Assembly: GCA_963714975.1 (NCBI GenBank)
Contig: CAVQQD010000003.1
Location: 512,001-576,000, forward strand
Length of the DNA stretch: 64,000 bases
Source: an uncultured Gammaproteobacteria bacterium
GTDB taxonomy: Bacteria > Pseudomonadota > Gammaproteobacteria > JAURND01
Direction of reading: 5' to 3'
The stretch's first letter is position 1. The number at the start of each line of letters is the position of its first letter. Made by a program: the position numbers and the translations under genes. Under the pieces are notes generated by a model that ran no database searches, was not told the origin of the DNA, and worked only from the letters and a program-made list of their open reading frames with translations. This document shows positions 56,350 through 60,751 of the stretch, piece by piece.

Positions 56350-57073
56350 GCAAATAAACCTCTTTTCTCAATGGATCAAATTTATCTATAACTGGCTGTT
56401 GCCATCTTCATGTGTCTTGTGCAAGGAGCGTACGCGCCATGAGCTGTTATGCGCTCCCTGTTATCAAGAATTGCCGTGGTTACAAAACTCCTGCTCTCGC
56501 TGCGCCAGGGAGCTGGCAACAGATGCTAAATCACTAATCTGTGGATCCTGCCTGCAAAATCCACCACCCTATGATAACAGCTTCGCGTTATTTAGCTACC
56601 AAGCGCCGGTAAGCAACTTCATATTAGCTTTAAAATTTCATAAGAAATTAGTTTATGCCAGATTGCTCGGAGAAATCTTAGCAAAAAAAGCCCAGGCGCA
56701 TTACCAAGATCGCTCTAAGCCAGAATTAATTATTCCCGTGCCCTTGCATCGTCGTCGGTTACAAGCAAGGGGTTATAATCAAGCCCTAGAATTGGCTTTG
56801 CCGCTGGCGAGGCAACTAAACTTGCCCCTGGCGAGAACACGCTGCGCTCGGGTTATTAATACCAACTCCCAATCTTCAACACCGGCTAACCAGCGCCAGC
56901 ACAATGTGCGCAATGCTTTCGTGGCCGATCCTTCACTAAAAAATCGCCATATTTTATTGGTGGATGATGTGATCACGACCGGGAGCACTGTAGCGGAACT
57001 GTGTCAGGCATTACGTGCTGTCGGTGTTGCGAGTATCGATGTGTGGTCTTGTGCTCGCACCTTTCTTAAATAA
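56348..57073 (+). CDS. comF: ComF/GntX phosphoribosyltransferase-like protein
   Basis: CxxC pairs, PVPLH, RGYNQ and LVDDVITTGST motifs. Confidence 0.9.
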   Translation: MQINLFSQWIKFIYNWLLPSSCVLCKERTRHELLCAPCYQELPWLQNSCSRCARELATDAKSLICGSCLQNPPPYDNSFALFSYQAPVSNFILALKFHKKLVYARLLGEILAKKAQAHYQDRSKPELIIPVPLHRRRLQARGYNQALELALPLARQLNLPLARTRCARVINTNSQSSTPANQRQHNVRNAFVADPSLKNRHILLVDDVITTGSTVAELCQALRAVGVASIDVWSCARTFLK

Positions 57074-57215
57074 ATTAAACTAATATTAAGTAAAAAAATT
57101 AAAATTTTTAATGTCTCTTAATAAACTCATAAGAATTACATGTTATGATTCCGCGCTTTCGTAGGGAAAGGTCGATAGATCAGGAATTGTTAATTACTAT
57201 AGAGAGGTTAATAGC

Positions 57216-58424
57216 GTGGAAAACAAAAGTGTTACAGTGACTACAGCAGACAAACAAAGTGGTCGTAAGGTTTTAGGAGATATCACCAACCTAGCCGTCC
57301 CTTCTGAAGCCAAAAATCCAAAAGCAGAAAATAGCAATAACAAACTTCAAAAATCCTCAAGTAGCTTAGGTGAGTCTACTCGAAAGATATTGGCAGAGTT
57401 AACAGGTGATGTGGATAAAAACAATAAGCTTCTCAGCCATAAATTACAATTTTTATCTCGATTAACCTTAGCAGCGTACGAAAAAAGAGTGAGTTCTCTC
57501 ATTGAGGGAGGAGATAGCCAGCTGCAGAAGAAAAAAACTCTACAAACCCGAAATGAGATACTTGCTCTTTTAGATCAAGGTGCCAATATGAATACAGTAA
57601 TACAAAACCTGGTAGCGGATACCAATAAAAAAATCAAAACCTATGGCAAGGATCAAGAAAAAGTACGTCAAACCTTGGAATTTATCCAATGGGTCATTGA
57701 GGATGCCCAAATACTGAGCGAAGACCATGCAAAAAGTCGGGAGAATCAAGAAAGTAAGGTCGCTACTCCCACAAATCCAAAGGAAATTAGCGCTGAAAAA
57801 GTCACTAGAGAGCAAACTGAAACAAAATCAGCAATGACTACAGCTCCTGCTCTAAATAAAAATCTCTATGAGAAATTAGTATCATTTTTTAAGACAAACT
57901 CAAAAATCTATAACAAGAAGGACTTTCATAGTCTGATCGAGAAAGGAAATAGATTACATCAAAAAAAATATAATGAAATCGAACAATCTCGTGATGAAAT
58001 ATTGGACCTTTTAAACGAAGGCGCTAATATAGACAAGGTGGTACAAATGTTGTCAACGCGGGTAGAGAACAGAAAAAACACCTATAACAATAATCAACGG
58101 AAAATAAATAAAGCAGATGAATCTTTAGCAGGGATTATTGAGGTTGCCAACCTATTTAGCAAAGTATTTGTAGAAACTCAGAAGAATGAGGATATTGCTT
58201 CTTCAATTCCAGAGCATACCAGTCAAGAGTCTGCAGTTTATGACGGAAGTTTTTTCTCGCCAAAGAATGAAGGAGTTACACTGAACCCTGCAGCAGAAAA
58301 AGCAGTGGAAAAAGTTGTGCTAGAACCGACTGATGCTCAGCCAACAACGACTACGACTGCGCCTGTTCTGGAGAATTCTAAACAAATTTCTTCAAATCAT
58401 TCTGCGTTGTGTCTAGTAATGTGA
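57216..58424 (+). CDS. Repeat-containing candidate effector A (D-box-like motif, CaaX end)
   Basis: RKVLGDITN; two LL(D/N)xGAN helical repeats; ends CLVM*. Confidence 0.72.
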   Translation: MENKSVTVTTADKQSGRKVLGDITNLAVPSEAKNPKAENSNNKLQKSSSSLGESTRKILAELTGDVDKNNKLLSHKLQFLSRLTLAAYEKRVSSLIEGGDSQLQKKKTLQTRNEILALLDQGANMNTVIQNLVADTNKKIKTYGKDQEKVRQTLEFIQWVIEDAQILSEDHAKSRENQESKVATPTNPKEISAEKVTREQTETKSAMTTAPALNKNLYEKLVSFFKTNSKIYNKKDFHSLIEKGNRLHQKKYNEIEQSRDEILDLLNEGANIDKVVQMLSTRVENRKNTYNNNQRKINKADESLAGIIEVANLFSKVFVETQKNEDIASSIPEHTSQESAVYDGSFFSPKNEGVTLNPAAEKAVEKVVLEPTDAQPTTTTTAPVLENSKQISSNHSALCLVM

Positions 58425-58447
58425 CTATTCAGCGGATACCACAGGTT

Positions 58448-58555
58448 TAAACGTGCCCGATTGCGTGCCCGTGCTCGGGATGACGGCATGGGCACGCAAT
58501 CGGGCACGTTTAGATTCGGACGACGAGCCTTAAATGAGTTGTGTGCATTGGATAG
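58448..58555. repeat. Perfect 23-bp-arm palindrome plus a degenerate ctatcc-MITE end
   Basis: taaacgtgcccgattgcgtgccc and its reverse complement at 58490-58512; ttgtgtgcattggatag at 58539-58555. Confidence 0.8.
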
Positions 58556-58658
58556 TTTCAAGAGGGGATACTATGTGTTTCCTTTGAAAAATAGGGAGAT
58601 ATTTAGGGAAGTATAATAGATCAGGACTTGTTAATTACTATAAAGAGAGGTTAATAAC

Positions 58659-59879
58659 GTGGAAAACAAAAGTGTAACTACAACAGACAAGCAAAGTGCT
58701 CGTAAATTTTTAGGAGATATTGCCAATCTACCTGTCCATTCTGAAGTCAAAAATCCAAAAAGTACCTCAGGCACGAGTCAGTCTACTCAAAAGATATTGG
58801 CAGGATTAACAGCGGATGCGGATAGAAATAATGAGCTTCTCAGCGCTAAATTACAATTTGTATCTCAATTAACTATAGCAGCGAGTGAAAGAAGAGTGAG
58901 TTCTCTCATTACAGGAGGAGAAGAGAACGCGACAGCAGAAGAGTTGGCAGGAGGAGAGAGCGCGCAAAAAAAGAAAATATTACAAACCCGTGATGAAATA
59001 TTTGACCTTTTAGATCAAGGCGCCAATATGGATACGGTAATTGAAAACCTGGAAACAGATTTTGATGAAATGCCTGAAGAAATAAAGCGAAGCATAGACA
59101 GTATCGATGAAGAAGCATTGAATGAAATAGACCTATGGAGAAGCGGAAAATTGAAAGTACCAACGTTGAAAAACTGGAATTTATCCGAATCCGAAATAAT
59201 AAATCAAAGAGAGAAATTTATTAAATGGGTCAAGCAAGACGCTCAAATACTTAGCGAAGATTATGCAGAAAGTCGGAAAACCCCCGATGAAAAGCTTTAT
59301 ACACAACTAAAAAATTTTTCTAGATTAACTTTAGCAGTGAAGCAGGGAAGGGTGAGTTCTCTCATTGAGAATGAACATCGTGGCCAGCCCAAGCAAAGCC
59401 TCGTTGCCATTCAAGAAGAGCAAACAAAACAAACCGCGCAAAAAATATTTGACCTTTTAGATCAAGGCGCCAATATGAATAAGGCGGTATCAAAGTTAGT
59501 AAAAACAACCAATGAAACAATAAAGTCTTATCCAGAGCAAAGCCAAGCCACACGTGATTTTTTCGGATGGGCTATTGGGGAGGCCCAAAAAATTCAGAAA
59601 ATATGGAATGAAACTCCGAAAAGTCAGGAGAATAAGAGCAGTGCTTCCTCAAATCGAGAGCAAACCCGTACTGAGGGGGTCACTACACTGCAGACTGGAA
59701 CTTCATCAAATCCCAGTGTTTCGGACAAAAATGACAGTTTTTTCCAGCCGAAGAACAAGCAGAACCTAAGTGGGAAGGAGTCCCGGCTGAATTCTATACC
59801 GGAAGTAGAAGAACCTAAGAAAGTCATTAACAGCCAGACTGAAGCAACAACCAATACGAGTACTTCTGCTGCTCTGTAG
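58659..59879 (+). CDS. Repeat-containing candidate effector B, paralog of 57216
   Basis: Shared leader and MENKSVT start; RKFLGDIAN; two SxLTxA...RVSSLI...LLDQGANM repeats. Confidence 0.72.
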   Translation: MENKSVTTTDKQSARKFLGDIANLPVHSEVKNPKSTSGTSQSTQKILAGLTADADRNNELLSAKLQFVSQLTIAASERRVSSLITGGEENATAEELAGGESAQKKKILQTRDEIFDLLDQGANMDTVIENLETDFDEMPEEIKRSIDSIDEEALNEIDLWRSGKLKVPTLKNWNLSESEIINQREKFIKWVKQDAQILSEDYAESRKTPDEKLYTQLKNFSRLTLAVKQGRVSSLIENEHRGQPKQSLVAIQEEQTKQTAQKIFDLLDQGANMNKAVSKLVKTTNETIKSYPEQSQATRDFFGWAIGEAQKIQKIWNETPKSQENKSSASSNREQTRTEGVTTLQTGTSSNPSVSDKNDSFFQPKNKQNLSGKESRLNSIPEVEEPKKVINSQTEATTNTSTSAAL

Positions 59880-60056
59880 GGAACAACAAATAATTTCCCC
59901 CTTTGAAAAAGGGGAATTAAGGAGGATTTAAAAAGATGAGGATACTAACATTATTTTTGTTAGTACACAATGCTTCTTTAAATCCCCCCTAACCCCCCTT
60001 TTGCAAAGGGGGGGATTTCTTTTAGGCCCCCTTTTGCAAAGGGGGTAGAGGGATTT
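59872..60056. repeat. Family D composite repeat; supplies the stop codon of the upstream gene
   Basis: Matches 17317-17384; several ccccc/ggggg hairpins. Confidence 0.8.
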
Positions 60057-60133
60057 TTCCTCCAGGGAATCGACGTGGCTTCGACTCACTCTCCGTGATA
60101 GAATTTGCTTCTTTTAGATTCAAGGATGCAATT

Positions 60134-60751
60134 ATGGAACTACGTGAAGCGTTACGACAAATGCCGTTAATCGCGGTTCTTTCAAACATTTCGTCCGCGG
60201 AAATCCTACCAATTGCCCAAGCACTCGTGAATACAGGAATTACTTGCCTGGCGGTATCGATAAACTCAGGGGCTGAGGCACTTGCAAGTATTCAATTATT
60301 AACTGAATATTTTGGCAACAAAATTCTTTTGGGAATGGATGGAGCAGTGACAACTGAGCAACTACAAGGTGTCGCGCAATGTAAAGCGCAATTTATCATG
60401 ACCTACCATACTAATCCTGCGCTCATCCAAATCGCTAAAGAGTTGAATTTATATTGCATTCCTGGGTTTAGTTCGCCTACTGAAGCATTTTCTGCAATCG
60501 CAGCGGATGCAGATGCGTTGCAAATATATCCTTGTCCTCCTCCTTTCACCATCAAGGCATTAAAAGCAGTTCTGCCTGTAGAAACGTTACTGATTGCAGG
60601 CAAGGGCAGCAATTCAGAGGCAATTCCTCTTTATTTTCAAGCGGGGGTTAATGCTTTTGTGGTGGAACAAGAGCTTGAGGTCGAAGGAGATACCCTTGAG
60701 ACGATTACTTATAAAACCAGAGCATTAGCAGCGATCATTCGCAGTTTGTAA
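60134..60751 (+). CDS. KDPG/KDPGal aldolase-family (DgoA-like) protein, apparently lacking catalytic residues
   Basis: PLIAVL, PGFSSPTEAF, KALKAVLP; the canonical LKxFP reads LQIYP. Confidence 0.75.
   Translation: MELREALRQMPLIAVLSNISSAEILPIAQALVNTGITCLAVSINSGAEALASIQLLTEYFGNKILLGMDGAVTTEQLQGVAQCKAQFIMTYHTNPALIQIAKELNLYCIPGFSSPTEAFSAIAADADALQIYPCPPPFTIKALKAVLPVETLLIAGKGSNSEAIPLYFQAGVNAFVVEQELEVEGDTLETITYKTRALAAIIRSL

Follow-up and report, generated by a model that had tools for sequence, protein, structure and literature searches.

Two adjacent genes in the genome of an uncultured gammaproteobacterium raise the question of whether a bacterium may equip proteins destined for its host with a destruction box (D-box) that the host cell-cycle machinery can read. 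The genes, here called A and B, lie in a 64,000-nt window, which is the whole stretch of DNA that was analysed (C3:512001-576000 of a 2.56-Mb genome in three contigs, C1 to C3, 93.75% complete). An earlier note on this window had described them as tandem paralogous effector candidates with cyclin-type D-boxes, one of them with a CaaX box. We tentatively put forward, as a reading that is itself rather doubtful, that A and B would be the first bacterial effectors with a working cyclin-B-type D-box, read by the host anaphase-promoting complex (APC/C) with Cdc20/Cdh1. Their lifetime would then be gated by the cell cycle, or they would act as anchored and soluble decoys that delay the destruction of cyclin B and securin.

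Both open reading frames (ORFs), both D-box-like 9-mers and the CaaX box were found where the earlier note had placed them, and the paralogy and the shared leader of about 40 nt were borne out by BLASTP and alignment:

57216-58424, + strand: ORF A (paralog A), GTG start, 402 aa, a hydrophilic, all-helical orphan with C-terminal CLVM
58659-59879, + strand: ORF B (paralog B), GTG start, 406 aa, without a CaaX box
57175-57215, + strand: leader of gene A, with a Shine-Dalgarno-like AGAGAGG 7-8 nt 5' of the GTG
58616-58658, + strand: leader of gene B, counterpart of the A leader
57264-57290, + strand: D-box-like 9-mer RKVLGDITN, residues 17-25 of A
58701-58727, + strand: D-box-like 9-mer RKFLGDIAN, residues 15-23 of B
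58410-58421, + strand: CaaX box CLVM of farnesylation type, residues 399-402 of A, immediately 5' of the stop codon

The two genes are arranged in tandem and co-directionally, and both proteins begin with MENKSV. BLASTP aligned them with 152/417 identities (36%, E 1e-55), and over residues 1-136 they are 69% identical. The leaders are 92.7% identical over 41 nt, ribosome-binding site included (alignment and BLAST), and BLAST found no further copy of this sequence in the 2.56-Mb genome. The predicted fold of the leader RNA was no more stable than that of shuffled sequences (z -0.43), and a consensus scan of the + strand at 56900-60200 returned no sigma-70-like promoter. Divergence at synonymous sites (dS) between A and B is 0.36 near the 5' end and reaches 0.93-0.94 mid-gene. 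This difference suggests that the leader and the 5' third diverged recently, via gene conversion or partial re-duplication.

The N-terminal 9-mers follow the D-box of B-type cyclins closely. In the D-box consensus of He et al. 2013 (PMC3690534), Arg at P1 and Leu at P4 are the anchors, P5 is mostly Gly owing to a tight turn, an acidic residue (D/E) at P6 touches an arginine, and P7 is aliphatic, occupying a non-polar site. In A and B alike, Arg at P1 and Leu at P4 (RKVL in A, RKFL in B) are followed by Gly at P5, Asp at P6, Ile at P7 and Asn at P9 (G-D-I-x-N). Human cyclin B1 has the box RTALGDIGNKVS at residues 42-53 (9-mer RTALGDIGN at 42-50; PMC3876668), and the D-box of Arabidopsis CYCB1;1 is RQVLGDIGN, with Val at P3 (PMC11706682). 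RKVLGDITN of A is identical to the human 9-mer at 6/9 positions and to the Arabidopsis 9-mer at 7/9. The first 60 residues of both proteins are low-complexity and Lys-rich, with 8 Lys in A and 6 in B, and a place near the N-terminus, among many lysines and where no structure is predicted with confidence, would suit a degron. Among the six-frame open frames of at least 60 aa in the genome, R..LGDI.N occurs exclusively in A and B, and the corresponding DNA pattern has two forward matches and no reverse match. The odds of a genuine D-box are raised by several features in combination: the motif is of the cyclin-B subtype and N-terminal, the proteins are effector-like orphans of an organism with Dot/Icm, and the accompanying CaaX box looks functional.

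Searches for relatives of the pair returned the pair itself. Nothing in Pfam, NCBIfam or PHROGs reached the cut-off for A or B (best Pfam E 0.0029, sub-threshold). A word-indexed search of 5.8 billion clusters recovered the A/B pair alone (2/5537 candidates), and a phmmer search of 1.84 billion representatives gave three matches at E<=1e-3, namely the pair and one spurious repeat protein. A profile of the four helical modules described below, run against longer proteins, also recovered only the pair. No family member beyond A and B was found among about 15 billion proteins. Homologs were found in 0/8 other genomes of the bacterial family, which is the whole order as sampled (nine species). The spurious match, P0005 (882 aa, E 1.4e-6 over six stretches), was dropped as an unrelated tandem-repeat surface protein. 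In soil metagenomes, two runs of one study each contained one contig (222 and 235 nt, depth about 2) identical to part of gene B; these two runs, which may be the source sample, held no variant of gene B usable as an orthologue. The claim of the earlier note that no bacterial family of this kind has been described agrees with searches of the open-access literature, in which none was found.

The genomic context bears on whether the proteins would reach a host. Genes for a type IVB secretion system of the Dot/Icm kind are present: IcmQ, DotM/IcmP, IcmL/DotI and IcmK/DotH are clustered at C3:366000-386000, all above Pfam cut-offs, and two further DotI-family genes lie outside this cluster, on C2. 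DotH/IcmK was present in 6/6 high-quality genomes of the bacterial family and in 6/9 overall; no match was found in the remaining three, whose completeness is only 63-67%. The genome also contains 47 Ank_2 matches, and abundant ankyrin-repeat proteins are consistent with a host-associated life. For the neighbouring Coq7, the closest matches (53-62% identity) were in gammaproteobacterial metagenome-assembled genomes (up to 62%) and in Legionella species (about 55%).

The A/B pair sits between comF and eda, the KDPG aldolase gene. These two genes adjoin directly in one relative (G001) and are separated by unrelated genes in two others (G002 and G003). The pair is thus a lineage-specific insertion, and the comF-eda slot, because its contents differ among the three relatives, a variable insertion site in the bacterial family. 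As read from ORF translations, the slot in G003 (L018:1067-1537) and in G002 (L021:775-2409) holds a gene for a YkuD-like small secreted protein, accompanied in one of them by an EamA-type transporter. The guanine-plus-cytosine (GC) content of A (37.6%) and B (40.2%) is lower than that of the flanking genes (43-47%) and of the window (43.2%).

The composition of both proteins is strongly hydrophilic, with Lys, Glu, Ser, Asn and Thr at 8-11% each, and no hydrophobic segment, signal peptide or membrane segment was found in either (maximum 19-residue hydropathy 1.12 and 0.58). Ser, Thr and Glu abound in the C-terminal tails of both, and the tail of B includes EVEEP, 21-25 residues before its end. 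The tails have the following features:

58248-58268, + strand: SFFSPKN island of A, shared with B, in the unstructured, diverged tail
59736-59756, + strand: SFFQPKN island of B, counterpart of SFFSPKN in A
end of B, + strand: Glu/Ser/Thr-rich C-terminal tail ...EVEEPKKVINSQTEATTNTSTSAAL

SFFSPKN/SFFQPKN is the sole conserved island of the diverged tails, and a candidate for a second short linear motif.

A Dot/Icm system, orphan status, a variable slot, low GC content and the lack of a signal peptide or membrane segment make up the profile of a Dot/Icm substrate, and on this context we consider it likely that A and B are effectors translocated by Dot/Icm. The earlier description of the pair as tandem paralogous effector candidates is thereby well supported, by the secretion system, the orphan status, the lineage-specific insertion, the low GC content and the hydrophilic composition alike.

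The CaaX box of A adds a second host-directed feature. A follows the C-terminal Cys-aliphatic-aliphatic-X rule with CLVM, and B is without a box. Met at the X position of a CaaX box directs farnesylation. C-terminal motifs were counted in a crude set of 2171 ORFs and compared with their own internal frequency. For endings of farnesyltransferase type, 0.72 were expected and 5 observed (P 9e-4); for C-aliphatic-aliphatic-L/F endings, 0.45 were expected and 4 observed, all of them CIIL (P 1e-3); and for any C-aliphatic-aliphatic-x ending, 2.98 were expected and 13 observed (P 1.5e-5). As a control, the C-aliphatic-aliphatic-x pattern was moved 1-10 residues inward, which gave 1-5 matches. Canonical CaaX endings thus number 9 against about 1.2 expected, and 7/9 of the proteins that bear them have no Pfam match. 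The eight canonical CaaX proteins besides A are encoded at the positions below; Pfam recognised nothing in six of them, a NACHT-TPR architecture in one, and in the last a weak match to the inverse-autotransporter family IAT_beta:

C2:1208776-1214712, C1:38172-38846, C1:400246-400713 and C2:454591-457539: first four of the eight
C2:690103-692235, C2:269053-270042, C2:422200-422808 and C3:724819-725502: remaining four of the eight

Their endings are CLVM, CLMM, CIIS (two proteins) and CIIL (four proteins). The one with CLVM, the same ending as in A, is the NACHT-TPR protein (1978 aa). All four endings with a non-canonical X (K, I, E, R) were on housekeeping enzymes in the Pfam scan. Because the canonical endings are enriched and lie almost only on orphans, and the non-canonical ones lie on housekeeping enzymes, the former appear to serve a purpose in this organism, as they do in Legionella, and the eight proteins together with A are probably a set of host-prenylated proteins. 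Legionella effectors exploit host prenylation, and mutation of the CaaX cysteine of AnkB left its translocation unimpaired (PMC13081727). For A itself, farnesylation and membrane binding in the host are moderately probable. The proposal that one paralog is membrane-targeted and the other soluble is plausible, given the enrichment of canonical CaaX endings, almost only on orphans.

Taken together, the following mechanism can be proposed. A and B would be recently duplicated, lineage-specific proteins, injected through the Dot/Icm type IVB system into a eukaryotic host, probably a protist. Each would have a three-part layout, with a Lys-rich N-terminus carrying the cyclin-B-type D-box, two helical-bundle modules, and an unstructured tail rich in Ser, Thr and Glu that would bear the secretion signal. 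Host farnesyltransferase would lipidate Cys399 of A (in CLVM) and so tether it to a membrane, while B would remain soluble. Cdc20/Cdh1 and APC10, which together form the D-box receptor, would be offered the N-terminal RxxLGDIxN. A and B would be expected to behave as APC/C substrates, with a lifetime that follows the phase of the host cell cycle. In large doses they would become competitors of cyclin B and securin. N-terminal fragments of cyclin B compete with APC/C substrates in extracts. A role as substrate or competitor is favoured over tight pseudosubstrate inhibition of the Acm1/Emi1 type because of the single D-box, the many nearby lysines and the lack of a KEN box. For the chain as a whole (an injected pair, a CaaX anchor and a D-box read by APC/C) the prospects are somewhat short of even.

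Several observations weigh against recognition of the 9-mers by APC/C. P3 is Val in A and a bulky Phe in B, where Ala, Pro or Ser is preferred, and the residue preceding the box (P-1) is Gly in A and Ala in B, where the consensus has Pro (PMC3690534). A and B have no KEN box, and an ABBA-like match is restricted to B: LPVHSE (58728-58745), right after the D-box of B, conforms to the regular expression of the ABBA motif, which binds APC/C co-activators, and LAVPSE of A does not. In the AlphaFold2 (AF2) model, which is poor overall, the predicted local distance difference test score (pLDDT) is below 50 for residues 1-206 and a weak helix is drawn over residues 8-22, so that disorder of the motif is not established. 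No orthologues of A and B were found in the searches described above. The two copies of the motif are not independent, and the chance that the six key residues would survive by accident is estimated at about 0.15; because the 5' part of the genes is young (dS 0.36), agreement between the paralogs is uninformative.

The motif also occurs by chance elsewhere. A degenerate DNA pattern, loose enough to let through Ser at position 1 and Phe at position 4 as well, matched 109/401 genomes of the class, a tally that takes in two genomes flagged as unpublished (G148 and G314). Of 30 sampled loci, 13 encode a true R..LGDI.N, and 5 of the 13 lie in open frames of at least 150 codons; in all five of these genic copies the first start codon is over 200 residues away, and none is N-terminal. 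Extrapolated from this sample, a chance genic copy is to be expected in roughly 1 genome per 20, and an N-terminal one in far fewer. Given the very many windows scanned, the 9-mer alone cannot carry the claim of a D-box. With the other features of the pair taken into account, we regard recognition of the A/B D-box by APC/C as possible, with the balance leaning against it. The idea of APC/C substrate mimics in the earlier note thus finds, apart from the motif itself, neither support nor refutation here.

The alternative that survives best accepts that A and B are translocated and that the CaaX box of A works, but holds that the 9-mer is a chance match or serves another use and is not read by APC/C, the activity residing in the helical modules and the tail motifs (SFFxPKN). 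The evidence from the effector context and from the CaaX box applies to this explanation equally, and the chance copies in other bacterial genes, the non-ideal P3 residues, above all Phe in B, and the youth of the paralogs, which accounts for the conservation of the motif, all favour it. It also agrees with the literature, since no report of a bacterial effector with a D-box was found in open-access sources, which is weak evidence of absence. It has more difficulty with the 9-mers themselves, in which 6/6 of the specificity-bearing positions match the cyclin-B subtype, beyond a mere RxxL. The 9-mers also lie where a functional degron would need to be, at residues 15-25 in an N-terminal stretch rich in Lys, and 0/5 of the sampled genic chance copies came within 200 residues of a start codon. 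We give this explanation serious weight, and hold it, too, to be doubtful.

A second alternative takes A and B as ordinary, non-secreted proteins, for example cytoplasmic structural or regulatory helical proteins, in which both eukaryote-like motifs are coincidental. Helical bundles are indeed generic folds. Against this stand the 7- to 9-fold enrichment of canonical CaaX endings, which shun housekeeping proteins, the absence of the pair from 8/8 relatives and its location in a low-GC variable slot, and the presence of Dot/Icm in the organism and in the whole bacterial family. Two host-type motifs in one small family would also be improbable by chance, and we consider this explanation unlikely.

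Horizontal capture of the N-terminal segment from a cyclin B gene of the host, as a relic or a working copy, would account for a motif of the cyclin-B subtype (LGDI.N) with 7/9 identities to a plant cyclin B D-box, in place of convergence. The similarity ends at the 9-mer: a search with residues 1-60 returned only the query protein among 28 candidates, the N-terminal 60 residues gave chance xylanase matches in the PDB (E 0.2), and Pfam detected no cyclin fold. This origin is very improbable. Equally improbable is that the ORFs are decaying or spurious frames, as orphans without a homolog in a genome with broken genes (a split carB) and repeat insertions might be, since they are two intact frames of about 400 codons with a conserved ribosome-binding context and a module architecture kept across four copies, and their ratio of non-synonymous to synonymous divergence (dN/dS) is below 1 in every segment. 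This ratio was 0.41-0.85 across all five A/B segments (0.41-0.52 in the N-terminal third and 0.44-0.85 beyond), which points to real, constrained genes.

Between the N-terminus and the tail, each protein contains a module of about 110 residues twice over. In the four-copy alignment, the modules share 15 invariant columns, including SLI and LL..GAN, and were delimited as follows:

57378-57749, + strand: module copy A1
57852-58199, + strand: module copy A2, degenerate
58788-59288, + strand: module copy B1, with an acidic insert of 30-40 aa
59289-59624, + strand: module copy B2

The earlier note had reported a repeat in two copies per protein. The copies are present in that number, while the string it quoted is not found in A2, which reads FHSLIEKG ... 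LLNEGANI. The full-length AF2 model, made from a two-sequence alignment, was too poor for use (pLDDT 40.9) beyond indicating a helical core and no structure for residues 324-406. A single-module AF2 model (copy B1, four-copy alignment) gave a moderate helical bundle (pLDDT 63.4, predicted template modelling score 0.61). Foldseek found no match of this model to the PDB at E<=0.001 (best 0.16), and a VIA search gave a best Z of 7.1, to generic helical hairpins, which is below the meaningful level for helical bundles. The best match of the module profile to PDB sequences was a Vti1 domain (E 0.3). By these comparisons of sequence and predicted structure, the helical module has no detectable relatives and counts as a new domain.

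The LL..GAN signature prompted us to consider an ankyrin origin for the module. Its ...LTLAA...V.SLI.GG... and ...I.DLLDQGANM... resemble the helix-loop ends of ankyrin repeats. There was no Pfam Ank match to A or B, which are not among the 47 Ank_2 matches of the genome, and hhalign against the ankyrin repeats of the same genome gave a probability of 5%. The module model is predicted to be a bundle of long helices and not an ankyrin stack, and the ankyrin reading was rejected.

Comparison of A and B with known systems places them near three groups of proteins. They share with the B-type cyclins an R-x-x-L-G-D-I-x-N in a Lys-rich N-terminal region. They differ from them in having no cyclin fold, no similarity outside the 9-mer, and Val or Phe in place of Ala at P3. 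They are also bacterial, and have the motif at residue 15-17 instead of about 42; their recognition by APC/C is proposed from sequence.

The second group comprises the prenylated effectors of Legionella (Pel/CaaX, AnkB). Legionella-type intracellular bacteria copy short eukaryotic motifs (CaaX) and eukaryotic domains (F-box, U-box, ankyrin repeats). A search of our genome for an F-box gave no PF12937 match, and the same search matched no control genome either. The shared features are a Dot/Icm bacterium and a C-terminal CaaX box on a hydrophilic protein. The number of canonical endings, 9 in this genome, where prenylation is predicted, compares with the 7-11 prenylated CaaX effectors reported for L. 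pneumophila strains (PMC13081727). A and B differ from these effectors in that they are unrelated in sequence to any known protein, and in that only one paralog bears the box.

The third group is that of the APC/C pseudosubstrate inhibitors Acm1, Mes1, Emi1 and plant OSD1, which are non-cyclins that present a D-box to the co-activator (PMC3690534). These combine the D-box with KEN, GxEN or ABBA motifs or with an extra inhibitory domain, whereas A and B each offer a single D-box with no KEN box, and only B adds a hexamer that resembles an ABBA motif.

Dot/Icm effectors with a CaaX box are already known, and a D-box on such effectors would be new. If the D-box is read as proposed, it would give an intracellular bacterium a new route to couple to, or to stall, the cell cycle of its protist host. 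RxxL would then offer a simple, mutable handle on how bacteria time or protect their effectors through the host cell cycle, or on how they interfere with the exit of protists from mitosis. Whatever the status of the D-box, the excess of canonical CaaX endings on orphan proteins would extend the hijacking of host prenylation to an uncultured lineage outside Legionella, and the helical module stands as a new domain.

The intergenic and 3' regions of the pair contain repeats of the genome. The following element lies between the genes:

58448-58512: palindromic repeat between A and B, with 27-nt arms (96% complementary) and an 11-nt loop

This palindrome is not peculiar to the locus: it belongs to a dispersed family of repeats whose members occupy about a dozen loci spread over all three contigs. 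The stretch 3' of B (59879-60060) contains three CCCCCTTT(T/G)(G/A)(C/A)AAAGGGG(G) hairpins within a 54-nt imperfect inverted repeat, and two of the hairpins are terminator-like. It gave 60 BLAST segments genome-wide, and therefore appears to belong to a second repeat family.

Elsewhere in the genome, carB, the gene for the large subunit of carbamoyl-phosphate synthase, seems to be in pieces at L022:6193-9413 (C3, just upstream of the icm genes), as four ORFs in a row (410, 325, 159 and 149 aa) that all contain parts of CPSase or MGS domains; the gene is probably broken or interrupted by a repeat. Ankyrin-repeat genes occur in near-identical pairs at C2:381000-388000 and C3:795500-821100, with frames of 1124 and 1126 aa that are 91% identical in the sampled stretch. 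Three more ankyrin matches on C2 are spaced exactly like three on C3, which suggests that the C2/C3 pairs reflect a segmental duplication.

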